From Escherichia phage KKP 3715: a stretch of 64,000 bases of DNA. Under the pieces are notes generated by a model, which ran no database searches, was not told the DNA's origin, and was given only the letters and a program-made list of their open reading frames with translations. The stretch lies in the sequence record OR067834.1. One strand, written 5' to 3'. Positions 448 through 60,804 of this stretch are shown one piece after another (position 1 is the stretch's first letter; the number at the start of each line of letters is the position of its first letter). A program made the position numbers and the translations under genes.

Positions 448-774
448 TCACTTATAAGCAGTTAAATAGGAGGGAGCGTATACCAAATGGGGGGATTGTA
501 AGGCATCACTCATGATGAAGGTAAGAGTGTACTTATCTGTGTTCACATGCCAGGGGGAGTACATGGAGGATGACCACGGTAATGCCTTTCCTGGTTCTTG
601 TAGTTTTACAATAACTTTCCTGCCTAGTATTAGAGCCAAACCTCTCACTTCATGATGGGTTTGCTCATCTGGTACTAGGATAATGGGGGTGAGTCTACCT
701 GGTTCAAGGTCTTGCAAGGTTGTATGGATAGTGGGATTAGGTCCACCAGCATAACCTATCTTAGTTAATTTCAT
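448..774 (-). CDS. hypothetical small protein, paralogous family member A
   Basis: 108-aa ORF; contains IILVPDEQTHHEVRGLALILG, matching the shared motif of four neighbouring ORFs. Confidence 0.5.
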   Translation of the reverse strand: MKLTKIGYAGGPNPTIHTTLQDLEPGRLTPIILVPDEQTHHEVRGLALILGRKVIVKLQEPGKALPWSSSMYSPWHVNTDKYTLTFIMSDALQSPHLVYAPSYLTAYK

Positions 775-1085
775 TTAATATCCTTTAGTACCTGTTCAAG
801 AATGCTATCCATGTAATAGCAGTATGCTTCACTATTGCTACTGTTTATGGGCATACCAATATAGTCAAATACCCACAAGCAGAAGTGGTTTACTTCATGG
901 ATAAGAGTTGGCAATGGTTCCTTGAAAATACCCATAAGAACCTTATTGCCAGAGTAGGTAGTGTAACCCTTACAACCATCTATATCTGGTTCATATCCTT
1001 TGAGCTTCTTGTACTTTTTACGGAAGACTTCTATGTCATTAACTATCTCCAGGTGTACTGGATAGGGTGATGTGTTTAGTTTCAT
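771..1085 (-). CDS. small protein with HExxH (HEVNH) zincin-like motif
   Basis: 104-aa ORF with LIHEVNHFCLWVFDYIGMP; 4-nt overlap with the downstream gene suggests translational coupling. Metallopeptidase assignment rests on the motif only. Confidence 0.5.
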   Translation of the reverse strand: MKLNTSPYPVHLEIVNDIEVFRKKYKKLKGYEPDIDGCKGYTTYSGNKVLMGIFKEPLPTLIHEVNHFCLWVFDYIGMPINSSNSEAYCYYMDSILEQVLKDIK

Positions 1086-1405
1086 TAGAGGCTCTCGTCG
1101 CTAGATAAATATGAGGTAGAAGGGTAGAGGGTAATAAGTCTACCAGTAAGAGTAGTAGCTACCATAGGTTCACAGGAGGAGAAGATGTATACCCGTGCAA
1201 ACTCAGATACTTCAACCGATGTATCTATCTTAGTGAATGTAATAGGTATACCTAACATTAGACAGGAACCTATAAACTCATCAGCTTCTTCACTAGGTTC
1301 ATATAAAACGGTAGCACCATCCAGTATACCACTTAAGAAATCTTGCTTAGTTACCTTACTAAGATAGCAACTTGTACTTAATGCAATTAATGAATAGAAG
1401 TGCAT
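1085..1405 (-). CDS. hypothetical small protein, divergent paralogous family member B
   Basis: 106-aa ORF with TVLYEPSEEADEFIGSCLMLG, a weaker match to the family motif. Confidence 0.45.
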   Translation of the reverse strand: MHFYSLIALSTSCYLSKVTKQDFLSGILDGATVLYEPSEEADEFIGSCLMLGIPITFTKIDTSVEVSEFARVYIFSSCEPMVATTLTGRLITLYPSTSYLSSDESL

Positions 1406-1408
1406 AAC

Positions 1409-1723
1409 TTACTTCCTTACATAGTAGTAACGGTACTCACCCTTCTCATAACGACTCTCCCATTGGTATTCATCAGATACCAGCATGAAAGGTGTAGGGT
1501 CATTAGCATTGTGGTTTATATAGACAGAAGGCGGAACAAGACATACAACCTTACGGTTATTACCTGCTAAGAATAGTTGTCCTCTTACTGCATGGTAGTC
1601 CTCTAAGGTAGGAACCAGGATTACTTGATGAGGGTTGCTGTTCATGACTTCTTCTAAGGTGAAGTCAGTTGTGTACATGGACTCCCCTTTAACAAAACTG
1701 GGGACTGTCATTACGAATTTCAT
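1409..1723 (-). CDS. hypothetical small protein, paralogous family member C
   Basis: 104-aa ORF with VILVPTLEDYHAVRGQLFLAG; an internal Met (MYTTDF, start near 1678) would remove the overlap with the upstream gene. Confidence 0.5.
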   Translation of the reverse strand: MKFVMTVPSFVKGESMYTTDFTLEEVMNSNPHQVILVPTLEDYHAVRGQLFLAGNNRKVVCLVPPSVYINHNANDPTPFMLVSDEYQWESRYEKGEYRYYYVRK

Positions 1724-2087
1724 GATTGATTCTCCTTCCTTTAGGGATAGGCCTGAAGTAAATGGAAAGTGTCTTATTAAAGACGTTATGGTCAGCTATC
1801 AATTCCCAACCAGGTACTTTATAGAACCTAACTCCTGGGAAGAATATTTCGAAGTCTGCATACTCAGTAAGGTCGTACACAACCGGTTCAGTAAGTATAT
1901 GCGTATTGATTTGCAGGTTACTTAAGAAGAATGAACCAACTATCTCATGAGATTCTTCACAGTCAGGTAAGAATACTACTTGCTTATGAGTTAGGAACTT
2001 ACTAACCATCTCTGGTTCCCCCAGGTAGTAGGGGTCTTGTCCGTGTAGTACACCCGAAATGTCAATATCAAAAGCGTAGATGCTCAT
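1689..2087 (-). CDS. hypothetical small protein, paralogous family member D
   Basis: 132-aa ORF with VVFLPDCEESHEIVGSFFLS; ATG at 2087 preceded by GGAGG. Confidence 0.5.
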   Translation of the reverse strand: MSIYAFDIDISGVLHGQDPYYLGEPEMVSKFLTHKQVVFLPDCEESHEIVGSFFLSNLQINTHILTEPVVYDLTEYADFEIFFPGVRFYKVPGWELIADHNVFNKTLSIYFRPIPKGRRINHEIRNDSPQFC

Positions 2088-2100
2088 AATTGCATACCTC

Positions 2101-2139
2101 CAGAAAAAGAAATGGGGTAGAGCCTCTCGACCCTACCCC
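2101..2139 (-). terminator. intrinsic terminator (GGGGTAG/CTACCCC stem followed by U-tract on the minus strand)
   Basis: Plus 2114-2120 ggggtag pairs with 2133-2139 ctacccc; minus-strand transcript continues AUUUCUUUUUCUG. Sits between paralogues E and D. Confidence 0.5.
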
Positions 2140-24152: not shown

Positions 24153-27100
24153 TTGAACAGGAAACATGCTATGTCAACATTTGACCGTCTGGCAGGTTTC
24201 GCAGACAGCATCACTAATGCTAAGCAAGTCGATGTCTCTACTGCAACCTCTCAGAAGCAAGCTGCACAAGGGCAAAGCCCTTTCCAATTAACCCCAGAGA
24301 ATGCTTACAATCTCCAGACTGGACGAGTAGGTAATCTTGGAATCGGTGCATTCGAACCAGATTCACTTCAGGCAGATTTCACTCAAGCCTCCCCATTAGA
24401 AATCATTAATAAATACGGTAATGAGCAAGGTTTACAGATTCTTAATAGCCGAGCTAATGCTGCTGATGTTGTACGTCAGGACTTATCTAAACAGCGTACT
24501 AACGCAGAAGCATTTGGCGATACTCTTTCTGGTGTTGGTCTTGGTGTTGCTAATACCCTTGGGGGCATTGCTGCTCTTGGCACAGGTCTGGTCAATGATA
24601 ATGCCGGGGCAACCATTGCTTCCGGGATGGATTGGTTGAATGAAGGCGTACACAATCTCCAGTCTGATGCACTGAATGCTACCCGTAAAGTTGTTCAGAA
24701 TCAGAACCAGATTTCTGCTCAAAAGAACCAGAAACTCTATGAAGAAGACATCAAAAATGGGGAGAGCGATTTGGTTGCCTCCTTGTCTCGCATTGGTCGT
24801 GACGCTTTCGATTCTGTTGCTAATACACTTGATAATGGTATGGCTGCTTCCGACGGACTGAGTGAAGGGGTTGGTTCCCTCTTTACTGGTGGTCCACTTA
24901 TTCGTGGTGTATCTGCACTTGGTAAAGTAATGGTAGGTGGTGATAAAGCTGTTAAGGGTATTACCTTAGCTGCTGGGTTAGGTTCACGCCCTGCACAGGT
25001 TGCATTGTCTGCTGGTCGTGTTGCTGCACCTGCTATTGCAATCGGTGGTATGGAAGCTGGTGGTGCATACCAACAGACTGCTTCTGAAATCATGAAGATG
25101 TCCCATCAAGAATTGGCAAGCAAGTCTCCTGTTTACCAACAACATATTGCTGATGGATTATCCCCTGATGAAGCACGTCGTCAGACTGCATCTGAAACAG
25201 GTATCATTGCTGCTGGCTTAACTGCTCCAGTTGCTGCTGCTACCGGCCCATTGGTATCTCGCTTTGAACTTAATCCACTTAAGGTAGGTTCACTTGCAGG
25301 TGCTGGTTCTAATATGCTGCGTGAGACTGTAGAGGAAGGTATTCAGTCAGGCTTTGGTCAATATGCCCAGAACCGTGCAATCAAGGAAAATGTTGATGCA
25401 TCCCGTGACGTTCTCAAAGGAGTCGGTGAGCAAGCAGGTCTGGGTGCACTTTATGGCTTCGGTAGTGCTGGTGTTGCTCAAGCTCCTGGTGCAACTGTTA
25501 AAGCTGCCGGTGCTGCTGCTGGACCTGCTCTTCGTACTACTCTGGCTGGTGCTTCTCTGGTTGGTAAAACATTAGCAAAAGCTGCATCTCCTCTTACTAA
25601 TATCCTGGTTCAACGTGGTGAAGAAGTTGCTAAGCGTAATGAACAAGCATCCCCTGTAGCTGATGCTACGGTTAATGCTGCTGCACAGGAAGCTGCTGCT
25701 CAGGCAGAGCAAGCACAGGCAACTGTACAGGAAGCAGTAGATGCAATGGATATCTCTCCAGAAGAGAAAGCTGCTGCTACCCAATATGCTGCTGACTTAA
25801 CTCAGGCAATGAAGTTTGATCCAGTAGAATTGGAACAAGCTAATCCAACAATCCGTGAAGCTGTTTCTGGTTCCACTAACCGTGTAGAAGCTATTCAGAA
25901 GATGGCTGACCTGGTTAATACTGCCGAAGACCCTAACGTTCAAATGGAAGCAGCAATCCAGATGTATGACAATATCATGTCCATGGATAGCTTCATTAAC
26001 CGTGACCCGGGTGCTCTGGCTAATCTGGAACAGGGTTCCCCTGCTGCTGCAATTGTAGACCAGTTCTCTGGCCTGATGGCTAACGTACAGAATACCCCTA
26101 AAGTACTTCGTGCATTCCGTGCTATTCATTCCATGATTCAGGAACAGGCTGAAGCAGGTAAGCTGAAAGCTACTGAAGAAGCTAACCAAGCCCAGGCAAA
26201 TAACATTGCTATGGCTGCTGATGTATCTCCAGAAGTGCTGGATGCAGATTCAGTGAACATGGTTCTGAAACATGCAAGTGAAGGTAAGATTACATTAGGG
26301 AATCGTCAACGTGCTGCCCTGCAATCTGCTGCTGCCTTGTTACAGGGTGCACGTGAGTTCGACGCTAAAGCAGAAGAACTAGGCTTACGTCCTCAAGACA
26401 TTGTTAGTAAACAGATTAAAACCGATGAGTCTCGTTCTAATGAAGGACAGTACTCTGCGTTGCAACATGCGAAACGCATTCGTTCTGCGTATAACTCTGG
26501 TAACTTCGATTTGGCCTCCGCTTATCTGAGCGACTTTATGAAGTTCGCCCAGCACATGCAGAATAAGGTCGGAGCGTTGAATGAGCATTTGATTTCGGGG
26601 AATGCGGATAAGAATAAGTCTGTTCATTATCAGGCTCTCTCGCCTTCCCGTGAATGGGTACGTAGTCGTACTGGCCTCGGTGTCAATCCTTACGATACCA
26701 AGTCTGTTAAGTTTGCCCAGCAAGTAGGACTGGAGGCCAAAACCGTAGCTGATATTGCTAATGCACTTGCTACGGCTTACCCGGAGCTTAATGTTTCTCA
26801 TGTGAAAGTTACCTCGTTGGATTCACGTCTGAACAAGCCAGCTGCCCAGGTAGTTAAAGAGTTCCGTCAAGGTGGTCTTGATGCCACTCAGTCTCAACAG
26901 ACTAATGAACCAGTGAATCAGGTTGATGAATCTCCTGCACCAGTGCAAGAGGACACTACTACTGTACAGCCTAAAGCTAAACCAGTGGTAGAAAATAAGA
27001 CTGCTCCTACTAAGGAGACTAGTCCAAAAACAGAAGAAGTCTCTACTACTAAGTCTGAAACAGTAGAAGCTACCCCCACTAATGAGGATACCATCCAGGA

Positions 27101-30100
27101 AGTAGCCAAAACCAAAACAGAAATGGAAACAGTGTTCCCTGTCTATAACAATGAAAAGACACCGAACCAGTTCCTGAAAGCATTTACCTTACCAGAGGAA
27201 CCTAAGTCTCGTACCGTTGGTTCTGAATCTCCTTTGGCTGATATTAAGCAAGCACTGTCTTCTGTTGCTCGCTTTGAGGCATTTACTCAAAAAGAAAATA
27301 ACGTTCTCACAGGTGATGTGATTAAGCGTTATCAGGACTTAATGGACTTTGGGGAAACTCTGAAGACTACTTTGTCTGAACGATTGGCTAAGTTCCTTGC
27401 TAATAAGAACGTTGGTAAACGTTTTGCAGAAGGTACTGAAGCTAACCGTTGGGTAGGTGGCAAACTACTTAATATCGTTGAACGAGATGGTGACACCTTT
27501 AAGTTTAATGACCAGTTGTTAGAGACTGCTGTACTTGCTGGTCTGCAATGGCGACTGACTGCTACACAGAATGCTGCCATTAAAGACATGAAAGATGTGG
27601 CTGCTATTACTGGTGTAGAAGCATCTTTGTTACCAGAAGGTATTCTGGCTGAGTTTGAGAATGCCCAGACTCTGGTAGAAGCTACTAACTCACTGGCTCA
27701 GAAGATTGAATCCTACTGGGGTTTAAACCGTAATCCTAATGCACCACTTGGGTATACAAAAGGCATCCCAATGGCAATGGCTACAGAGATTCTGTCTTCC
27801 CTCATTGAGATGGGTGAAGTTAAAGAATCTATGCTGGATGTGTCCGAGATTGACCCAGACTCCAATAAGACTGTCGGTCTGTATACTATTGAGAAGCTGG
27901 ATGACAACGATGCCATTAACAAATTCCCTACTGCTATTGAGGAAGCTGTCCTCTTAGAACCAGAAGAGAAAATGTATTTTGATGATGATATTCCTTCTGT
28001 GGCTCAAACTCAGTTGCGTAACCCTGCTGTTAAGAATACCCCAGAACAGAAAGCTGCACTTAAAGCTGAACAGGCTACTGAGTTCCGTGTACATATGCCG
28101 ATGGTTAACTTCTATGAAGCATTAGGCCGTGACAACATTCTGGAACTGATGGGTGCTGGTACTCTTAATCCTGATTTGCTGAATAAAAACACTGCCAAAT
28201 CTTTGGAAGGTAAAAACCTGTCCGTATCCATGGCATATGATTCTCTGTTCGGTGTAATTAATCAGATACGAGAACAAGAGAATGGTCTGGATACTCCTAT
28301 TCACTACGGTTACAACATGACTCGTGTAGGTCGTATGCAGATGCTTGGTAAGAACAACCCACAATCCAGTAAACTGGTTCGTGAAGCAATTCTGCCGACC
28401 TTCTCTACTATCGACTTGAGTAATGAAAACAGCCAAGCATTCTCTGACTTCCAGCTAGGACTGGCTCAGGCATTAGGCATCAAGGTACATAAAATGTCAC
28501 GTGAAGCTATGTCTGAAAATCTGACCAAAGCTCTGGAAGGCAATCTGAAGCCTGCTGTTGATATGATGGTTGAGTTTGATAAGGCTGGTTACTTACCTAC
28601 TGATGCAGTAGATATTCTGAAGACTTCTCTGGGTGATAACAAATCCTTCGTGGCTCTCATGGCTCTGATGGAATATGCCCGTTACCTGAACAGTGATGAC
28701 CGTGCTAATTTTACTACTCCCTTGTACGTTGAAGCTGATGGTGTAACCAACGGCCCAATCAACGCAATGGTATTAATGACTGGTGGTAAGTTCACGCCCG
28801 ACTGGATTAAGAACACTGCCAAAGGTGGTTTGTTCTTTGGTCGTGCTGGTAAAACGATGAACGAACACTGTTCTATCGACGATAATGTTGACTTGTATGA
28901 AGCATCTACCAATGGTCTGCAACAAGCACTGAATGAGTTACGTACTACTTACCGTAACAACGTTCCGGTTATGAGCCAGATGAATCATCTCCAGAAGTTA
29001 ATGGACTTGTTCATTAAAGACTTTAATCTGAACGAAGACGGTACTCTGGACCTGAAACGTGGTATCGCTAAAAACCCACTGACCATTACCATCTATGGTT
29101 CTGGTGCACGTGGTATTGCTGGCAAGATGGTTAGTGCAATTACTGACACCATCTACGAACGCTTCAGTGACGTTCTGCAAGCACGGGCTGCTGACCCTAG
29201 CATTTCCCCAGCTATGGCAATGTTTGGTAAGGAGGCTGCGTCTGAGGCTGATGCTCAGGCTATGCTGGATACTTTCCTTACTTCTATGGAAGCACTGACT
29301 GGCAATGTTCCAGTTATGCGTAAAGGTGAATTGTCTATTCAGCAAGTAGATGGTGCTCTGACTGGTAAGTTAGACCCTCAGAAGTTTACCGTATCCGGTA
29401 ATGCTCTGAAGAACTTACAAGAGAACATGCTCCACCTGTTCGTTGAACCAATGCGTACCGGTATCCGGAATACTGTTGGTGAAGGTCTGATGCACTCTAC
29501 TGAGAATTTGCAGAAGGCTACCCAGATTCAATCTCTGGTATTGCAGGATATGTTCCAGCAAGCAGTACAGGCTAAGCTGGCAGAAAAAGAAAAAGACCCA
29601 ACCTGGAAGAAGGGTGATTTCTTAACGCAGAAAGAACTGAATGAAATCCAGGAATCATTATCTCCACTGGCTCCAATGATTGAGACTGGCTCACAGACTT
29701 TCTACATTGCTGGCAGTGAGAATACTGATGTTGCTAACCAAGTACTGGCTACTAACTTAGATGATCGTATGCGTGTGCCAATGAGCATCTATGCTCCTTC
29801 ACAGGCAGGTGTTGCAGGTATTCCATTTATGACCATCGGTACTGGTGATGGCATGATGATGCAGACCCTTTCTACTATGAAGGGTGCTCCGAAGAATACC
29901 CTGAAAATCTTTGATGGTATGAACATTGGTATCAGTGACATTACTGATGCAAGTCGTAAAGCTAACGAGGCTGTATACACTTCCTGGCAGGGGAACCCTA
30001 TCAAGAATGTTTATGACTCCTACGCTAAGTTCATGAAGAATGTAGACTTCAGCAAACTGTCTGATGAAACCAAACAGGCTATCGCTAAATCTGCTCTGGA

Positions 30101-33100
30101 ATATGACCTGCGTGAGGGTGCTACCGATGACCTGTTACGTGCAGGTGCTGAACAGATTGAACGTAACCTACGTAACATTGCTCTGGGTGTAGATATTCGT
30201 CACAAAGTGATGAACCAGGTACAGACCACTGTTGACCAGATGGCTGCTGTAGGTGCTCCTTATGTGAACAACGGTAAAATCTCTCTGGAAGGTCTGACTG
30301 TAGACCAGCAAGTAGCTAAGCTAAACGAACTATTTGATGCTGAATTAAATAAGCGTCGTGATGCAGTACGTGCTGCTAAAGCAGAACCTGTTAAAGAAGT
30401 GCCAGCTATGGAACAAGTTGGTCGTGTACTGAAGTCTGGTGTACGTCTGTTGTCTAATACTGCTATCACTAAGCTGGCTAAAGAGATGACTTCTGAACAG
30501 CAAGCAGTATTGAAAGAAGTACAGAAATCCCTTGCTGCTAAAGACTACAAGGTTGTTTACGGTACTCCTGCTCAACTGGATGCTTATGCTATTGAGAAGA
30601 ACATTACTCGCCCAGCACCGGAAGATATTGAAGCTGCCGAAGCTGGTAATGCATATGGCTGGACTAACTTTGATGATAAAACCATCTACTTAGTTACCCC
30701 TTCCTTAGAGACTCTGGTTCATGAATTAGTACATGCTTCTACTTTTGAATCTGTACTGGCTCACTATGAGGGTACTCCTAACGAAGCAGTCCAGAACATC
30801 GAAGATCTTATGAACCAGTTCCGTACTCTGGATGTTAAGAACGAATCCCCGGCAGTACGTGAAGCATATGCTGATGCACTCAATACCATTAACGGTCACT
30901 TGTCTAATGGCTTTATTGAACCTGCAATGGCTAAAGCTGCTGCACTGAATGAGTACATGGCATGGGGCTTAACCAATCGTGAACTGATTGGTAAGCAGAA
31001 GAAGACCACTGCACTGAAAACTATGGTTCAGTCTGTGTATGAAGCAATCAAGCGTCTGGTATTTGGTCGCAAGAAAGCACCTGCTAATGCAGATGATATG
31101 TTCTCCGGATTACTGTTTAACTCTTCAGTAGTTATGCGTGGGCAGGCTCCTACTGCTGCTGTATCCAAAGACACTACCTTGTTCCATAACAAAGCATATG
31201 GAGATAATACCCGTCTTGAAGAATTGGGGCAGACCTTTGATAAGCTGATTACTAACTACATTGGTTCTGAACCAGTGCAGCAAGTAATTCGTAAAGGTAA
31301 GTTCTCTGATGCAGTAGTGAATGCAACTAAAGTAACTCGTGATGTTCAGGCTTATGGCTTTACCATGAATATGCAGGAACAGCGATTGTTCACTAATATC
31401 GTTGCTGCTTTGGCTACTGAAGCTGCTATTAGTCCGGCTGCTCTTTCTCGTGCACAGGAATACTATGCACACGTTACTAAGAACCTGACCGTTGAATCAT
31501 TCATGGCTGACCCGGATAGTACTAACCCTGCTGACCGTTACTATGCTCAACAGAAGTTCGATACCATCATGGGTGCTAACAATATTGAGTTTGATGCACA
31601 AGGTCGTTCTTCCTTACTGCCTACCTTTGTTGGTCTGGCAATGGTAAGTGAAGAGGTGCGTAACGTACTGGCTAACATTCCTGTTATGAAAGCAGATAAG
31701 AAATCTGGTAATACCGTTGATGCAATGCTGACTAACATTGGTACTGCTGCAATGTCTAGCCTGAACGCTCGTGTAGCAGGTGATACCAAAGCTACTAACG
31801 TACAGGAAGGTATGGATGCACTGGCTCAGACAATCATGCAGACAAGTCTTAATGCACAGTCATTCTATGATTCCGTTGCTACTCCTAGTGGTAATGCTAT
31901 TGACCGTGCTAACCAGTATCTGGTGGATTCTATTGATGCACTGTCTACTCGTGCTTTAGAAAGTGCTCGTGAAGTTGCAGCTAATACCAAGAACCCATTG
32001 GTTAAGGGTGCTGCTCATGCTGCACAATTGGTGGCTGCTATTGCTACTGAGAAGAACGGTGCAATCGTGGCAGAAGGTGTTATGGCTGCAATGAACCAGG
32101 GCAAGGTATGGCAACCTTTCCACGACTTGGTTAATGACTTAACTGGTCGTACTAAGAGCAATGCTTCTGTATACGATTTGATTAAAGCAGTTCGTGCACA
32201 GGTACAGGCTGACCGTCAGCAGTTCCGTGAACATCTGCCTACCACTATCGCATCTAAGTTCAGCCGTAAGCTGACTAACGATGAGTGGAAAGCAATGCAC
32301 ACCGGTATGGGTAAAACTGACTTAGCTGTTCTGCGTGACACTATGTCTCTGGCTGAAATCCGTGACCTGCTGTCTGACCAGAAGATTGTTGACCGTGAAG
32401 TGAATAAGCTGGAAGCAGATTTGCAGAAACAAGCTGGTCGTAACTGGCCTCTGATTAACCGTAAATCTAAGCAACTGGCTCAGTACATGATTAACGGTAC
32501 GGTCGGTAATAACCTGCTGCGTAATGCTACTGCAATCTCCCGTATGCTGGGTGAACGTCAGGCTGCTCGCTCTACTGTAGATGTAGCTCAACTGGATAAA
32601 CTGATTACCCTGTATGCACTGGAAGCAATGAACAAGTCCGACCGTGAGACGTTATCTTCACTGGCTCAGACAGAAGTTGAGGGAATGGACTTTGCTACTT
32701 CTTACCTGGTTGGACAACGTAAAGATGAAATGGCTAAAGCCAAGTCTGATATGCGTGCAACCCTGAACCAGTACAAAGGGCATATTCCTAGTGAGACTAA
32801 ACAGGGTGTTAATCTGATTGTTGCTGAAGATAGCCAGTTTGCTGATTTGATTGAGAAGTCCTATGTACGTCTGGGTACTTATCAAGGTAGCTCTGCTAAC
32901 CGTGGTCCGGCACGTAGCTATTACTTTGCACCAGTACAGGCACAGGCTCCTTTCTCACAGGGTATCCTACAGAACGTTCGTAATACTGCTGGTGGTGTAG
33001 ACCTCGGCACAGGCTTTACGATGGGTTCCATGGTAGCTGGTCGTATTACTGACAAGCCTTCCGTAGACCGTATCACTAAAGCACTGGCTCGTGGCGAACG

Positions 33101-34523
33101 TGGTAATGAACCACTGCTGCCTGTATATGACGATAAAGGTAATGTAGTTGCCTATGAGCAATCCATTGACCCTAATATGCTGAAGCACATTGAGGGTGAG
33201 AACCATCTTGCCCGTGCAATCGGCGTATGGCGTGGTCGTCAGGTGGAAGAAGCTAAGGCTCAGCGTTTCAACGATATGCTGATTGAGAACCTGCATAGCA
33301 TGTATGAGAACGACATTAAGATGTCTGCCTCTAATAAGTCCCAGTACGTTAACCTTCTTGGTTCTAAATTGGACCCAGTAACTGCTGATGCTCTTAAGCT
33401 AATGAATAGTGAAACCCGTCAGAAAGCAGAGAGTTTGTTCGGTGAGGGTGAACTGTGGGTACGTCGTGACATGCTTAATGATGCACTTGGTTATCGTGCA
33501 GCTTCTGTAGGTGATGCCTGGTCTGGTAATTCTCGTTGGTCTCCGGAAACATTGGATACCTTTAAGAAAGCTATGCTGGGTGTATTTGGTAACCGTGCCT
33601 ATAAGTACACAATGGGTGGTGAGAACCTGGTTCAAAACTTAGTTAAAGAAGCTAAGACTCTGATTGTAGTTAAGTCAGTAGTCGTACCTGCTGTTAACTT
33701 CTTAGCTAACCTTTACCAGATGGTTGCCCGTGGTGTACCGGTTAAGAACATTGCTAAGAGCATTCCACAGAAGACTGCTGAGATTAACCAGTACCTTAAA
33801 TCACGTCTGCGTCAGGTAGATGCAGAAGCAGAATTACGTGCAGCTACTAACCCGAACCAGATTCGTAAACTTAAGGCTGAGATTCAGTCCATTACTGATA
33901 GCCATAAGCGTATGAGTATCTGGCCTCTGTTGGAAGCCGGTGAGTTCTCTTCAATTGCAGACGCTGGTATTGGTCGTGATGACATCCTGATTACTGAAGG
34001 CAAACTCCACGAATACATGGATAAGCTGGCAGATAAGTTACCTAAGTCTGTGCGTACTGCCGGTCGTTATGCACTTATTACTAAGGATACTGCTCTGTTC
34101 CAGGGTATCCAGAAGACGGTTGAGTACTCTGACTTTATCGCTAAAGCAATCATCTATGATGAACTGACTCAGCGTAAAGGTAAGACTCGTGAAGAAGCAC
34201 TTGGGCGTGTAACGGAAGAGTTCGTTAACTATGACCGTTTACCTGGTCGCTTCCGTGGGTACATGGAAAGTGTTGGTTTAATGTGGTTCTACAACTTTAA
34301 GATTCGTTCAGCTAAGGTTGCTGTGTCCATGATTCGTAATAACCCTGTACATGCAACAATGGCGATGCTGGCTCCAACTCCTACCATGTTTGGTAACGTT
34401 GGCTTACCTATTCAGGACAACATCTTTAGTATTGCTGCTAAGGGTAGTCTGGATTACTCATGGGGCTTTGGTCAGGGTCTTCGTGCTCACAACCTGAACC
34501 CTTGGATGAACCTGGTAAACTAA
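24153..34523 (+). CDS. virion-encapsidated RNA polymerase (giant, N4 vRNAP-like)
   Basis: 3456-aa ORF, the hallmark of N4-like phages. Track start is TTG at 24153; ATG at 24171 with AGGAAA RBS is the more likely start. Confidence 0.9.
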   Translation: MNRKHAMSTFDRLAGFADSITNAKQVDVSTATSQKQAAQGQSPFQLTPENAYNLQTGRVGNLGIGAFEPDSLQADFTQASPLEIINKYGNEQGLQILNSRANAADVVRQDLSKQRTNAEAFGDTLSGVGLGVANTLGGIAALGTGLVNDNAGATIASGMDWLNEGVHNLQSDALNATRKVVQNQNQISAQKNQKLYEEDIKNGESDLVASLSRIGRDAFDSVANTLDNGMAASDGLSEGVGSLFTGGPLIRGVSALGKVMVGGDKAVKGITLAAGLGSRPAQVALSAGRVAAPAIAIGGMEAGGAYQQTASEIMKMSHQELASKSPVYQQHIADGLSPDEARRQTASETGIIAAGLTAPVAAATGPLVSRFELNPLKVGSLAGAGSNMLRETVEEGIQSGFGQYAQNRAIKENVDASRDVLKGVGEQAGLGALYGFGSAGVAQAPGATVKAAGAAAGPALRTTLAGASLVGKTLAKAASPLTNILVQRGEEVAKRNEQASPVADATVNAAAQEAAAQAEQAQATVQEAVDAMDISPEEKAAATQYAADLTQAMKFDPVELEQANPTIREAVSGSTNRVEAIQKMADLVNTAEDPNVQMEAAIQMYDNIMSMDSFINRDPGALANLEQGSPAAAIVDQFSGLMANVQNTPKVLRAFRAIHSMIQEQAEAGKLKATEEANQAQANNIAMAADVSPEVLDADSVNMVLKHASEGKITLGNRQRAALQSAAALLQGAREFDAKAEELGLRPQDIVSKQIKTDESRSNEGQYSALQHAKRIRSAYNSGNFDLASAYLSDFMKFAQHMQNKVGALNEHLISGNADKNKSVHYQALSPSREWVRSRTGLGVNPYDTKSVKFAQQVGLEAKTVADIANALATAYPELNVSHVKVTSLDSRLNKPAAQVVKEFRQGGLDATQSQQTNEPVNQVDESPAPVQEDTTTVQPKAKPVVENKTAPTKETSPKTEEVSTTKSETVEATPTNEDTIQEVAKTKTEMETVFPVYNNEKTPNQFLKAFTLPEEPKSRTVGSESPLADIKQALSSVARFEAFTQKENNVLTGDVIKRYQDLMDFGETLKTTLSERLAKFLANKNVGKRFAEGTEANRWVGGKLLNIVERDGDTFKFNDQLLETAVLAGLQWRLTATQNAAIKDMKDVAAITGVEASLLPEGILAEFENAQTLVEATNSLAQKIESYWGLNRNPNAPLGYTKGIPMAMATEILSSLIEMGEVKESMLDVSEIDPDSNKTVGLYTIEKLDDNDAINKFPTAIEEAVLLEPEEKMYFDDDIPSVAQTQLRNPAVKNTPEQKAALKAEQATEFRVHMPMVNFYEALGRDNILELMGAGTLNPDLLNKNTAKSLEGKNLSVSMAYDSLFGVINQIREQENGLDTPIHYGYNMTRVGRMQMLGKNNPQSSKLVREAILPTFSTIDLSNENSQAFSDFQLGLAQALGIKVHKMSREAMSENLTKALEGNLKPAVDMMVEFDKAGYLPTDAVDILKTSLGDNKSFVALMALMEYARYLNSDDRANFTTPLYVEADGVTNGPINAMVLMTGGKFTPDWIKNTAKGGLFFGRAGKTMNEHCSIDDNVDLYEASTNGLQQALNELRTTYRNNVPVMSQMNHLQKLMDLFIKDFNLNEDGTLDLKRGIAKNPLTITIYGSGARGIAGKMVSAITDTIYERFSDVLQARAADPSISPAMAMFGKEAASEADAQAMLDTFLTSMEALTGNVPVMRKGELSIQQVDGALTGKLDPQKFTVSGNALKNLQENMLHLFVEPMRTGIRNTVGEGLMHSTENLQKATQIQSLVLQDMFQQAVQAKLAEKEKDPTWKKGDFLTQKELNEIQESLSPLAPMIETGSQTFYIAGSENTDVANQVLATNLDDRMRVPMSIYAPSQAGVAGIPFMTIGTGDGMMMQTLSTMKGAPKNTLKIFDGMNIGISDITDASRKANEAVYTSWQGNPIKNVYDSYAKFMKNVDFSKLSDETKQAIAKSALEYDLREGATDDLLRAGAEQIERNLRNIALGVDIRHKVMNQVQTTVDQMAAVGAPYVNNGKISLEGLTVDQQVAKLNELFDAELNKRRDAVRAAKAEPVKEVPAMEQVGRVLKSGVRLLSNTAITKLAKEMTSEQQAVLKEVQKSLAAKDYKVVYGTPAQLDAYAIEKNITRPAPEDIEAAEAGNAYGWTNFDDKTIYLVTPSLETLVHELVHASTFESVLAHYEGTPNEAVQNIEDLMNQFRTLDVKNESPAVREAYADALNTINGHLSNGFIEPAMAKAAALNEYMAWGLTNRELIGKQKKTTALKTMVQSVYEAIKRLVFGRKKAPANADDMFSGLLFNSSVVMRGQAPTAAVSKDTTLFHNKAYGDNTRLEELGQTFDKLITNYIGSEPVQQVIRKGKFSDAVVNATKVTRDVQAYGFTMNMQEQRLFTNIVAALATEAAISPAALSRAQEYYAHVTKNLTVESFMADPDSTNPADRYYAQQKFDTIMGANNIEFDAQGRSSLLPTFVGLAMVSEEVRNVLANIPVMKADKKSGNTVDAMLTNIGTAAMSSLNARVAGDTKATNVQEGMDALAQTIMQTSLNAQSFYDSVATPSGNAIDRANQYLVDSIDALSTRALESAREVAANTKNPLVKGAAHAAQLVAAIATEKNGAIVAEGVMAAMNQGKVWQPFHDLVNDLTGRTKSNASVYDLIKAVRAQVQADRQQFREHLPTTIASKFSRKLTNDEWKAMHTGMGKTDLAVLRDTMSLAEIRDLLSDQKIVDREVNKLEADLQKQAGRNWPLINRKSKQLAQYMINGTVGNNLLRNATAISRMLGERQAARSTVDVAQLDKLITLYALEAMNKSDRETLSSLAQTEVEGMDFATSYLVGQRKDEMAKAKSDMRATLNQYKGHIPSETKQGVNLIVAEDSQFADLIEKSYVRLGTYQGSSANRGPARSYYFAPVQAQAPFSQGILQNVRNTAGGVDLGTGFTMGSMVAGRITDKPSVDRITKALARGERGNEPLLPVYDDKGNVVAYEQSIDPNMLKHIEGENHLARAIGVWRGRQVEEAKAQRFNDMLIENLHSMYENDIKMSASNKSQYVNLLGSKLDPVTADALKLMNSETRQKAESLFGEGELWVRRDMLNDALGYRAASVGDAWSGNSRWSPETLDTFKKAMLGVFGNRAYKYTMGGENLVQNLVKEAKTLIVVKSVVVPAVNFLANLYQMVARGVPVKNIAKSIPQKTAEINQYLKSRLRQVDAEAELRAATNPNQIRKLKAEIQSITDSHKRMSIWPLLEAGEFSSIADAGIGRDDILITEGKLHEYMDKLADKLPKSVRTAGRYALITKDTALFQGIQKTVEYSDFIAKAIIYDELTQRKGKTREEALGRVTEEFVNYDRLPGRFRGYMESVGLMWFYNFKIRSAKVAVSMIRNNPVHATMAMLAPTPTMFGNVGLPIQDNIFSIAAKGSLDYSWGFGQGLRAHNLNPWMNLVN

Positions 34524-58119: not shown

Positions 58120-58572
58120 TTATTTTGAAGGTCTAGCAGATACTGGTTTGTTTGGTTGACACTGGTACTTACCTTCATAACGACAATGCTCTGCTATCTC
58201 TTCGAAGATAACCTGAGCTATGCCAGTACCAGCTTTTATTGTAACAGGCAAAACACCCGAATAACGAAGCTCAAGAGTAAGGAAACCTTTCCACCCTGGT
58301 TCGATATTGGTTGTCATGCTTGCATCAATCCCCTTTCTGGCCCATGTACTCTTATTAAGTACACGGCCCATAAGGTTTGGTGGTACGTCAAACTCTTCTA
58401 TGGCTGACGCTAGTACGAATCGACGCCCCAAGAACATAGTCACATCCTGCTTAATACGAATATCGTATCCGCATTCTGTAAGACCCCAAGAGAAACCATT
58501 ACTGGTTTGCTTAGAGTCCACCATGTTCTTTATAGGAGCCAGTTCTAATAAACGACTGCGGTTAATAATCAT
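58120..58572 (-). CDS. dCTP deaminase / dUTPase-fold protein
   Basis: 150 aa; motifs GLTECGYDIRI, NKSTWARKGI, EPGWKGFLTLEL and GTGIAQVIF typical of the dCD/DUT family. Confidence 0.7.
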   Translation of the reverse strand: MIINRSRLLELAPIKNMVDSKQTSNGFSWGLTECGYDIRIKQDVTMFLGRRFVLASAIEEFDVPPNLMGRVLNKSTWARKGIDASMTTNIEPGWKGFLTLELRYSGVLPVTIKAGTGIAQVIFEEIAEHCRYEGKYQCQPNKPVSARPSK

Positions 58573-59978
58573 TTCATTCCTTTAGGGATATGAACTACCT
58601 CCCCAAAAGGTACGGTAGCATTGGGATTATTCAGAACACACCATATGATAGGAATATCAAATGGTAATTCTTCCATAGGGCGAACATACATATCAGAGAA
58701 TATGATTGCAGCGGTTGGCTTATTCTTAATAATCCAATCACGTACCGGTACAAGGTTTGTACCACCACGACCGGTAATCTTAATCTCTTCAAAAGTATCT
58801 TCTTCAGTGATGTCTATTTCTTCTTGGATAATATCGTCGAAGGTAATAAGAGTCATCTTCTTAGGATTGAACTGGCTCTTGACGTAGGCAACCTCTGAGT
58901 TAAAACGCAGAGAGTCAGCACTACTAATAGAACCGGATACATCTTCAAAGTAGGCTAAGTGCCGTAAACGTCCTTCATCATCTTCCAGTGATGGTAGATA
59001 GATGTCAGTGAATCGACGATTAGGTCTGGCCCACGTATAGTGTGTATCATCAATGTCGGTAAAGAAATTCAGCAGGACTTCCTGCCATGGAACCACTGGT
59101 TTTAGGAATTGGGTAATAACCTCTTCCATACGACCAGCACCTTTACCGGGCATCATTCCACCAGCCATCTTCTGGCTTTGCATTGCACGTACTACGTTGT
59201 TGACAACAGCACCCTGGGACTGCCCCGAAGAGGGAGCTTTCATGTCGCCAGCAAGACCTGCTCCAGCACCCCCTGACGGCTTCTGCCTTTTCTGAGGGTT
59301 CTTCATCAGGTCATCGTAGATGTCTTCTTCGACCCATCCTTTATATTGAGGGTCTTTGCAAATGCCTTCGTCGATACCAGTGAACTTGTAACCATCTTCC
59401 TCTAACTGAAGGTTGATGAAGTGGTCACATGCTTGGTTCCATACTTCCGGGTCACGGCTTCCACAACGGATGCCATGCAGATATGCTACATGCCAGAGTT
59501 CGTGCATTAGCACTGTTTCTCTTGCATCAGGGCACATCCAAATAAAGAAGTCTGGGTTGAAATGGAGTTCTATCCCATCGGTACATGCAGTGGGACAGTC
59601 TTCACGTTTCCATGAGAACTTAAGGCTACACAGCAATGAACCAAAAAACGCAGCAGACTTGCCTAGAAAGGCTTGGGCCTGAATACGGTCATACTCACGC
59701 ATGAGTTGTTCATCACTGAGTGTGTGCTGAGGTATCTGGTTCATGTTGTGATTATCCGTGAATGTAACGAGAGATGTTGGCAGCAGCCTTACGCCATTCA
59801 GGGGTAGCCTGAATTTCTGGTAATGCTTTGCCCACTGTACGGAAGTACAGAATCTTATGAGTGAACGTTTTAAAGCGTTCAATGTACTGAAGTACATCAA
59901 CGAAATTATCTTCAGTGGTCTTGTTAGCCAGATGGTTAACGGTAGCCCAGCACAGGTTATTATCTTCCGGCAGTGCAC
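58569..59978 (-). CDS. vWA-domain protein with N-terminal HExxH metallopeptidase-like region
   Basis: Likely true start ATG at 59744 (MNQIPQ), 7 nt after the ATPase stop; HExxH VLMHELWHVAYLHG; MIDAS-like FEDVSGSIS. Confidence 0.7.
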   Translation of the reverse strand: MHCRKIITCAGLPLTIWLTRPLKIISLMYFSTLNALKRSLIRFCTSVQWAKHYQKFRLPLNGVRLLPTSLVTFTDNHNMNQIPQHTLSDEQLMREYDRIQAQAFLGKSAAFFGSLLCSLKFSWKREDCPTACTDGIELHFNPDFFIWMCPDARETVLMHELWHVAYLHGIRCGSRDPEVWNQACDHFINLQLEEDGYKFTGIDEGICKDPQYKGWVEEDIYDDLMKNPQKRQKPSGGAGAGLAGDMKAPSSGQSQGAVVNNVVRAMQSQKMAGGMMPGKGAGRMEEVITQFLKPVVPWQEVLLNFFTDIDDTHYTWARPNRRFTDIYLPSLEDDEGRLRHLAYFEDVSGSISSADSLRFNSEVAYVKSQFNPKKMTLITFDDIIQEEIDITEEDTFEEIKITGRGGTNLVPVRDWIIKNKPTAAIIFSDMYVRPMEELPFDIPIIWCVLNNPNATVPFGEVVHIPKGMK

Positions 59979-60804
59979 AGCCCAAAGGGTCTTTGACTAC
60001 CTTCTCAATCGTAATCATACGATTATATACCTGGGTGAACTGAACAAACTCTACAGCCTTACCTGGTGTAACGAAACCACTGTAGTACAGGGAATCCTCG
60101 TCAGGCAAAGCACCTTCTGGTTGGTTCTTGAGGTCTTTATTAATGAAGTCCCAAGTACGAGGGCAACAGAATGTTTTGTTCTTATGAGCAGGATCGAAGT
60201 CGTGCAAATAACCCGGGTTAGCATGTAAGAATGCAACCAGACGCTCATCCCATTCTTGTGGAATCATTACGTCTTCAACAAAGATGTCGAAGTTAAGTTC
60301 CATTTCGAAGTGGACGACACGGGACTGCATTGCAGTACCCAGTGGGTTAACGATAGCACGGTCAGTAGCTTTGTTACCGGCACAGATAATCATCACATTA
60401 GGGTGAAGTTTCTTCTGACCAGTCATACGGTCGAGAATCAGTTTGTATGCAGCAGCTACTACTTCTTTCTTAGCTGAGTTGAACTCATCAAGGAACAGGA
60501 GCCAGCCATTATAACCTTCTGGTACTTCATCTCCCTCAATAGGGAATAAGTCAGCGAAAGGGATAAACTCTGCTCGGTCACCATTACGGAATGGTAGACC
60601 AGACAAGTCTTCCGGGGCAGAAGTAGACAGACGATGGTCAATCAGCTTCATACCAAATTCTTCTGCAACAGAACGAATAATTGCAGACTTACCCATGCCA
60701 GGTGATGAAGTCAGGAACGGTACGTTACCTGCTTGCAAGGCACGGATAATAAAGTTACGGGCTTGGCGTGTATTACATACAGTCAAGGAGTCAATGCTCG
60801 CCAT
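59752..60804 (-). CDS. MoxR-like AAA+ ATPase
   Basis: 350 aa; Walker A LTSSPGMGKSAIIRS; Walker B LLFLDEFNSA; partner of the downstream vWA protein. Confidence 0.75.
   Translation of the reverse strand: MASIDSLTVCNTRQARNFIIRALQAGNVPFLTSSPGMGKSAIIRSVAEEFGMKLIDHRLSTSAPEDLSGLPFRNGDRAEFIPFADLFPIEGDEVPEGYNGWLLFLDEFNSAKKEVVAAAYKLILDRMTGQKKLHPNVMIICAGNKATDRAIVNPLGTAMQSRVVHFEMELNFDIFVEDVMIPQEWDERLVAFLHANPGYLHDFDPAHKNKTFCCPRTWDFINKDLKNQPEGALPDEDSLYYSGFVTPGKAVEFVQFTQVYNRMITIEKVVKDPLGCALPEDNNLCWATVNHLANKTTEDNFVDVLQYIERFKTFTHKILYFRTVGKALPEIQATPEWRKAAANISRYIHG

Follow-up and report, generated by a model that had tools for sequence, protein, structure and literature searches.

The minigluzincins proabylysin, projannalysin, and selecase are soluble archaeal metallopeptidases of approximately 100 residues and have been described as the minimal scaffold of the M48/M56 catalytic domains (PMC4559962; bioRxiv 10.1101/2020.07.07.192476). 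In phages, a zincin-like MPTase domain has been reported in the N4 virion RNA polymerase (vRNAP), and the minimal zincin core has been defined as a three-stranded sheet and an N-terminal helix, followed by the HExxH helix and then by a helix bearing the zinc-binding Glu (PMC5512222). In addition, hkcC is named among the unknown-function genes of the P22 'ant moron' (PMC2629481). Here, we analyzed a 64,000-nucleotide stretch of Escherichia phage KKP 3715 (accession OR067834.1; hereafter the window). It derives from an N4-like coliphage, and its first 6 kb shares approximately 90–93% DNA identity with Gamaleyavirus (Schitoviridae) genomes, e.g., PGN829.1. The gene in question, located at 771–1085 on the minus strand, encodes a small HExxH protein of the family PHROG 1365. 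Judging from residue conservation and a structural model, its product is probably a stand-alone cytoplasmic zincin-type zinc metallohydrolase that consists of a bare catalytic core and acts as an accessory effector; its likeliest activity is that of an endopeptidase.

The gene and its boundaries were read from the sequence and the coordinates of the open reading frames (ORFs) as follows.

771–1085, minus strand: ORF with an ATG start, encoding the 104-amino-acid stand-alone HExxH protein, a PHROG 1365 member
885–899, minus strand: codons for H63-E64-V65-N66-H67 (CAT GAA GTA AAC CAC), in predicted helix 57–75
816–830, minus strand: codons for E86-A-Y-C-Y90, at the start of predicted helix 85–103
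1083–1087, minus strand: TAATG stop/start overlap with the upstream gene at 1085–1405
771–774, minus strand: ATGA start/stop overlap with the downstream gene at 448–774

The ORF was translated to MKLNTSPYPVHLEIVNDIEVFRKKYKKLKGYEPDIDGCKGYTTYSGNKVLMGIFKEPLPTLIHEVNHFCLWVFDYIGMPINSSNSEAYCYYMDSILEQVLKDIK, in which HEVNH occupies residues 63–67; the original prediction of an HExxH protein of about 100 residues was thereby confirmed. The same prediction held the gene to be translationally coupled to its neighbor. The TAA stop of ORF 1085–1405 shares one base with the ATG of the HExxH gene, and the TGA stop of the latter overlaps the ATG of ORF 448–774. Both overlaps are visible in the sequence itself, and the gene is thus truly tightly coupled to its neighbors on either side. 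H63 and H67 are the two proposed zinc ligands and E64 is the proposed general-base Glu, while E86 (GAA, nucleotides 828–830) and Y90 (TAT, nucleotides 816–818) are proposed as the candidate third ligand and its conserved companion, respectively. The protein has an isoelectric point (pI) of 6.3, with 12 K/R against 13 D/E, and a grand average of hydropathy of −0.26 with no hydrophobic segment. Since it has no signal peptide or membrane segment, it should work in the cytoplasm of the infected cell. Related phages annotate the gene as a hypothetical protein.

On its own, a single HExxH says little; by composition, approximately 0.34 occurrences are expected by chance in the ~19.7 thousand residues of the large ORFs of the window. 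The conservation of the motif was examined in the family. The protein matched phrog_1365, a PHROG of unknown function, with an E-value of 6.9e-29 (residues 1–104 on profile positions 6–117 of 127), and had 119 close homologs. In a search of 1.84 billion proteins at E ≤ 1e-3, a family profile built from 26 of these homologs detected 635 representative clusters (50% identity each). The 150 listed clusters were 69–189 residues long, except for a single 557-residue repetitive protein, and the members of PHROG 1365 are almost all stand-alone proteins of 95–190 residues. HExxH was found in 147 of the 148 newly found representatives, which were the best-scoring of the 635, and was missing only from the 557-residue protein. 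In a MAFFT alignment of 148 diverse sequences, H63, E64, and H67 were each conserved in 148/148, followed by E86 (147/148), Y90 (145/148), G40 (141/148), Y8 (131/148), and G77 (125/148). A second homolog search using the diverse alignment yielded just four more distant members. Because HExxH is conserved across diverse relatives, its presence goes beyond chance; as far as this conservation indicates, it is a selected active-site signature and neither a chance occurrence nor a decayed relic.

The family signature was HExxH-x18-E-x3-Y, and the H67-x18-E86 spacing was read straight from the sequence. Gluzincins carry a Glu ligand approximately 18 or more residues after HExxH on a helix; E86 lies at this distance, on a predicted helix. 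Looking downstream of HExxH for a third zinc ligand, as the original prediction had proposed, therefore gave E86 as a candidate, conserved in 147/148. We regard the signature of PHROG 1365 as that of a putative gluzincin-type zinc site. The original prediction had offered two alternatives, a minimal metallopeptidase and a degenerate scaffold. The second is contradicted and was rejected because the general-base Glu, E64, is invariant. The first is favored by the essentially invariant HExxH, E86, and Y90 among the 148 best of the 635 clusters, together with the predicted topology described below.

Some deviating members were also observed. The close Gamaleyavirus-type homologs P0089 and P0100 break the motif, with HALNH lacking the general-base Glu and YELNH lacking the first His; either inactivation of the alleles or sequencing error could account for this. 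In a longer member, mEp021_49 (gene 49 of phage mEp021, locus L015, 2315–2899; 194 residues), the C terminus is a tail rich in Ala, Glu, and Lys that may form a coiled coil or a basic region. In a metagenomic subgroup of 22 loci (L039, L022, and related IMG/VR loci), the maximal ORFs encode 171–182 residues with uncertain start codons, and the gene sits between an exonuclease gene and genes for PhoH-like protein and the terminase large subunit (TerL).

The same 26-sequence alignment was fed to AlphaFold2, which gave a model with a predicted local distance difference test score of 92.8 and a predicted template modeling (TM) score of 0.83. The model contains strand 11–15, helix 18–29, strands 40–45 and 48–53, helix 57–75 with HExxH, and helix 85–103 with E86 and Y90. 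This order of elements is the same as that of the minimal zincin core (PMC5512222), and the predicted protein would be that core and nothing else. The zincin superfamily has a conserved HExxH on an α-helix, and predicted helix 57–75 carries it here. The original prediction was to be refuted by an unconserved HExxH and the lack of a predicted zincin-like fold, and this outcome was not obtained: HExxH is conserved, and the predicted topology appears zincin-like.

Remote similarity was investigated at the sequence and structure levels. The protein had no match in Pfam, NCBIfam, or PADLOC, and a PDB sequence search with the single HExxH sequence gave no match. The family profile matched PDB sequences just at E-values of 0.4–1.6, confined to the edge strand and the HExxH helix; these were BMP1/astacin, a Mycoplasma HExxH protein, and N4-type vRNAPs (chains with E ~1). 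When 96 diverse members were scanned singly, sub-threshold Pfam matches were obtained with SprT-like (16 members), DUF4344 (9), M50B (5), astacin (2), and eCIS_core (2), and these recurrent matches are zincins or HExxH metalloproteases. Among the predicted viral structures of BFVD, 22 matches with E ≤ 0.001 were found, mainly uncharacterized phage proteins with TM scores up to 0.88; the named neighbors, at E 0.0015–0.07, were SprT-like, a PolyVal metallopeptidase (TM 0.77), BepA, and IrrE. Weighing against the zincin assignment is the weak three-dimensional similarity to solved zincins in Foldseek, in which the top PDB match, the SprT domain of SPRTN (6mdw), had a non-significant E-value of 0.05. 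Such remote similarity as was detected by sequence and by model leads to zincins alone. The most fitting description of PHROG 1365 is a gluzincin-type branch of the zincin fold that is stand-alone and uncurated. A match to ImmA/IrrE (M78) was looked for and not found: the protein had no Pfam match to it at E ≤ 1, the IrrE neighbors in BFVD were weak (TM ~0.5), and M78 was not among the 25 listed (of 40) Pfam families matched by the 96 members.

The model shows a very small protein without an obvious substrate-binding domain. This would also suit a zincin-fold hydrolase of a non-protein substrate, such as a nucleotide, a signaling molecule, or a small peptide-like metabolite, or else an inert metal-binding adaptor. 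Some HExxH zincin-like proteins have been reported with non-protease activities, which counts in favor of the former. However, the invariant catalytic signature including E64 speaks against an inert adaptor, and every named remote neighbor in sequence or structure is a peptidase; we consider both variants quite improbable.

As a peptidase, the protein may work as follows. Its core would consist of the three-stranded sheet and a backing helix, followed by the H63-E64-x-x-H67 helix and then the E86 helix. Zinc would be held by H63, H67, and E86, with E64 activating water as the general base. Y90, one helical turn past E86, could be a second-shell or transition-state residue, and edge strand 48–54, with the conserved G52 and F54, would dock the substrate backbone.

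The distribution of the family was investigated using tblastn, which detected it in 96–183 phage records, depending on the query. The carriers included Gamaleyavirus and Kaypoctavirus (both N4-like), Cbunavirus (N4-like, of Pectobacterium), Kuttervirus (Det7, Vi01-like), Guernseyvirinae (phiEap-2), Autographiviridae of Pseudomonas and Ralstonia, and P22-like phages. The gene was located in the following contexts.

N4-like phages: small-gene cluster at the genome end
Possum and L005, two unrelated groups: between the terminase small (terS) and large (terL) subunit genes
P22-like phages: late operon, straight after ejection-protein gene 16, adjoining the sieA/mnt/arc/ant moron
another context: between the lysis genes and terS
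T7-like genomes: right end, after the lysis genes
P. putida phages: between the DNA ligase and RNA polymerase genes
phiEap-2: replication module (polymerase/endonuclease/helicase), directly upstream of a Lar-like anti-restriction gene
Det7: after SbcD/SbcC-like genes
other loci: before a DNA-repair exonuclease or metallophosphoesterase gene; the member adjoins a DNA-repair exonuclease gene in L022, a metallophosphoesterase gene in L020, and an exonuclease gene in L039
another context: beside a QueC-containing cluster

All ten context proteins tested were phrog_1365. Neighbor clustering of 48 loci, which represent 19 distinct groups (the viral-contig scan used a 15-sequence subset), revealed no neighbor family common to the 19 groups, i.e., no conserved partner, inhibitor, or substrate gene. 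Conflict genes adjoin some members, namely Lar in phiEap-2 and the sieA/ant moron in P22-like phages. Two scans of species-representative bacterial genomes gave no relative, at a sensitivity limited by the patterns used. The original prediction had called either a minimal metallopeptidase or a degenerate scaffold unusual here. This was overstated: the family is common in phages, with 96–183 records per query including HkcC of HK620/P22, and the same phage carries two more HExxH modules, in the MPTase region of its vRNAP and in a DUF2201_N protein.

Several of these neighbors belong to DNA repair or replication (the SbcD/SbcC-like genes of Det7, the L022, L020, and L039 loci, the phiEap-2 module, and the P. 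putida ligase), as would suit a functional analog of SprT/Wss1/Spartan that, together with nucleases of recombination and repair, clears phage DNA of proteins that block it or are covalently trapped on it. SprT-like was also the commonest sub-threshold Pfam match among the members (16/96), and the SPRTN SprT domain was the top Foldseek PDB match. However, roughly half of the contexts lie at terminase genes, lysis genes, or genome ends and not in DNA metabolism, and the family profile gave a probability of only 13.5% against E. coli SprT in hhalign. Furthermore, the protein of the window has no His after HExxH, its conserved candidate being E86, unlike SprT/WLM, and it carries no basic or DNA-binding extension (pI 6.3). 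On balance, an SprT-like role is unlikely.

To characterize the accessory status of the gene, the window was compared with four Gamaleyaviruses (PGN829.1, Moonfish, E20, and pSb-1). The gene lies in the following block.

448–2087, minus strand: tightly packed block of five genes (1689–2087, 1409–1723, 1085–1405, 771–1085, and 448–774), of which the HExxH gene is the fourth

The block is divergent from the genes for the TerS-like protein, TerL, and the tail. The TerS-like protein and TerL were 98–100% identical among these phages versus 57–97% for the small-gene cluster, and the five-gene block is hypervariable between Gamaleyaviruses. The HExxH gene showed 92% identity in PGN829.1 and only 57% in Moonfish, against 98–99% for TerL, and was absent from E20 and pSb-1, the closest relatives in this comparison, which carry a 112-residue phrog_12606 gene in its slot.

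The absence from E20 and pSb-1 bears on the possibility of a morphogenetic or processing protease, with virion, ejection, or packaging proteins as its substrates, a trimming role that has been suggested for the polyvalent MPTase domains including that of N4 vRNAP. Such a role would fit the position of the gene between the two terminase subunit genes in two unrelated groups (Possum and L005) and straight after ejection gene 16 in the P22-like late operon. N4-like vRNAPs also carry a zincin-like MPTase domain (PMC5512222), and TLVHELVH of the window vRNAP fits the family consensus. However, E20 and pSb-1 do without the gene despite their 98–100% identical TerS-like protein and TerL, and in the window the gene lies on the strand opposite to the late structural genes. 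Many members sit in replication modules, and the similarity to the vRNAP domain is limited to 21 aligned columns (76% in hhalign). We give this role little credence.

The original prediction also placed the gene within a cluster of paralogs, and this position was correct. The flanking genes starting at 448, 1409, 1689, 2289, and marginally 1085 showed weak mutual similarity in an all-against-all BLASTP, in which the HExxH protein had no similarity to them. Because of this lack of similarity, the HExxH gene is a cassette lodged in the paralog array and not a diverged member of it, a possibility that was rejected. The paralogs accompany the HExxH gene in N4-like phages only.

The gene is an optional single-gene cassette in the hypervariable small-gene cluster at the end of the N4-like genome. 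Elsewhere, too, the family travels as a lone gene, and the phages that exchange it are unrelated (P22-like, T7-like, Kuttervirus, and other N4-like phages, among others). Owing to this mobility, the enzyme would probably cleave a host or otherwise broadly available protein and not serve a lineage-specific assembly step. A host-directed effector role, in takeover or counter-defense, is the likeliest, since the gene is dispensable, hypervariable, horizontally mobile, partner-less, and sometimes located beside conflict genes; within the enzyme assignment, we give this role somewhat less than an even chance. A bolder proposal, which we put forward only tentatively and hold to be less likely again, is that PHROG 1365 is the smallest autonomous gluzincin protease family known, of about 100 residues with Glu as the third ligand, and a single-gene effector traded among unrelated lytic and temperate phages that site-specifically cleaves a host defense or housekeeping protein.

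The paralog array itself comprises 448–774, 1085–1405, 1409–1723, 1689–2087, and 2289–2579 on the minus strand, encoding proteins of 96–132 residues. They share the central motif hhh(V/L)P-x(5-7)-H-x-(V/I/L)-x-G-x-hhL, e.g., ILVPDEQTHHEVRGLALILG, VILVPTLEDYHAVRGQLFLAG, and VVFLPDCEESHEIVGSFFLSN, and belong to PHROGs 16338, 12099, 11661, 9160, and 7213 (unknown function) with weak cross-matches. The copy number and content of the array vary among Gamaleyaviruses, with an added phrog_12606 and extra phrog_16338 copies. The maximal ORFs 1689–2087 and 1409–1723 overlap by 35 nucleotides (1689–1723). Since the homolog of 1409–1723 in PGN829.1 and Moonfish is annotated four codons shorter, with a 23-nucleotide overlap, the true start may be an internal ATG (MTVPSF...). 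One further element was located upstream of the block.

2114–2139, minus strand: strong intrinsic-terminator-like hairpin (11-bp stem with 7 GC pairs, 4-nucleotide loop, and T-run), between gene 2289–2579 and the five-gene block

This hairpin is only ~27 nucleotides from the next start codon. As it lies just before the block, transcription of the block would either pass through the hairpin or start from an unrecognized N4-type promoter. Downstream of the cluster, a G-rich non-coding stretch of ~155 nucleotides was observed at 290–447 (...GGTGGGGTAGGGTAGTGGCTACAGGG...CCGGGGGGGATGG...). It has the word GGGGTAG(G/A)G, which is also found in one arm of the 2114–2139 hairpin, and ARAGORN detected no tRNA in it. 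Because the genome ends a few hundred bases past the HExxH gene in many related records, 290–447 may be near a terminus or terminal repeat.

Two other HExxH modules were identified in this phage. The vRNAP (3456 residues; 24153–34523, plus strand) contains ...TPSLETLVHELVHAS... at residue ~2190 (nucleotides ~30720–30734). This stretch falls where Iyer et al. 2017 (PMC5512222) placed the zincin-like MPTase domain of N4 vRNAP. Its local TLVHELxH is identical to the small-family consensus, and the profile similarity covers just ~21–40 residues. The third HExxH protein has 469 residues and joins a putative metallopeptidase, DUF2201_N (E 7.8e-55), to a VWA-like DUF2201 domain. It adjoins an AAA ATPase, forming a MoxR-like pair, and the two ORFs, 58569–59978 and 59752–60804 on the minus strand, overlap.

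Among hundreds of phage genomes, no record or library examined gave the family a label other than 'hypothetical', and no characterization of PHROG 1365 was found in the searchable literature on the family, hkcC, and phage metalloproteases. A one-line prediction (zinc metallopeptidase, H63/E64/H67/E86) is therefore directly useful for annotation. If active, the family would define how small a Glu-liganded zincin protease can be, offer structural biology and engineering a compact scaffold, and bring a proteolytic class into the set of small accessory effectors traded by phages. Since hkcC of P22-like phages, long unexplained, is a member and close relatives of this phage do without the gene, clean knockouts and point mutants are feasible, and hkcC of P22/HK620 would be a genetically tractable entry point.

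HkcC of HK620 (121 residues) belongs to the same family as the window protein (99.5% in hhalign, E 3.8e-22 against the family profile) and reads HECAH...NETYCY. Unlike the window protein, it lacks the N-terminal M-K-x-x-x-x-P-Y-P segment, and hkcC sits in the late operon of a temperate phage, adjoining sieA/mnt/arc/ant. The SprT-like/WLM proteins (Wss1 and Spartan), which are proteases of DNA-protein crosslinks, resemble the window protein in having a small zincin domain; they differ in being cellular, in having DNA-binding parts, and in using His and not Glu as the third ligand. In SprT/WLM enzymes, this His comes shortly after HExxH. Membership in SprT was rejected: the window protein has no His after H67 in the helix, and a threshold match to PF10263 was absent (sub-threshold in 16/96 members, best E 0.034). 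From the hhalign value of 13.5% against E. coli SprT, the window protein is not an SprT.

Classical gluzincins have 300–900 residues with large substrate-binding subdomains, unlike the 104-residue window protein, and no significant sequence or structure match to them was detected using Pfam and Foldseek. The signature of M1 aminopeptidases is HExxH-x18-E, and the spacing in thermolysin (M4) is x19; the x18 of the window protein is that of M1 (aminopeptidase N/LTA4 hydrolase). Thermolysin has an Asp four positions after the Glu ligand, where PHROG 1365 has a Tyr.

The MPTase domains of polyvalent proteins are phage-borne like the window protein, whose predicted core follows the same definition (PMC5512222). 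They form part of giant multidomain proteins destined for packaging and injection, whereas the window protein is a free ORF product of about 100 residues. TLVHELVH of the window vRNAP fits the consensus TLVHELxH of the small-protein family, and the family profile aligned with this vRNAP at 76% in hhalign over 21 columns, comprising the strand and the HExxH helix (10.8 bits in hmmsearch). With the alignment spanning just 21 columns, only similarity at the superfamily level was found to the MPTase domain of the phage's own vRNAP.

The minigluzincins and the window protein are alike in being stand-alone, soluble, and about 100 residues long; the sheet, the backing helix, and the two helices bearing HExxH and the further ligand in minigluzincins are predicted for the window protein as well. 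No similarity to proabylysin, projannalysin, or selecase was detected in the sequence or structure searches run. The third zinc ligand of the minigluzincins is a His, whereas the candidate in the window protein is a Glu (E86). The zincin fold and minimal zincins of about 100 residues were thus already known; what appears to be new here, to judge from sequence and model, is a bare-core, Glu-liganded zincin borne as a phage accessory gene.
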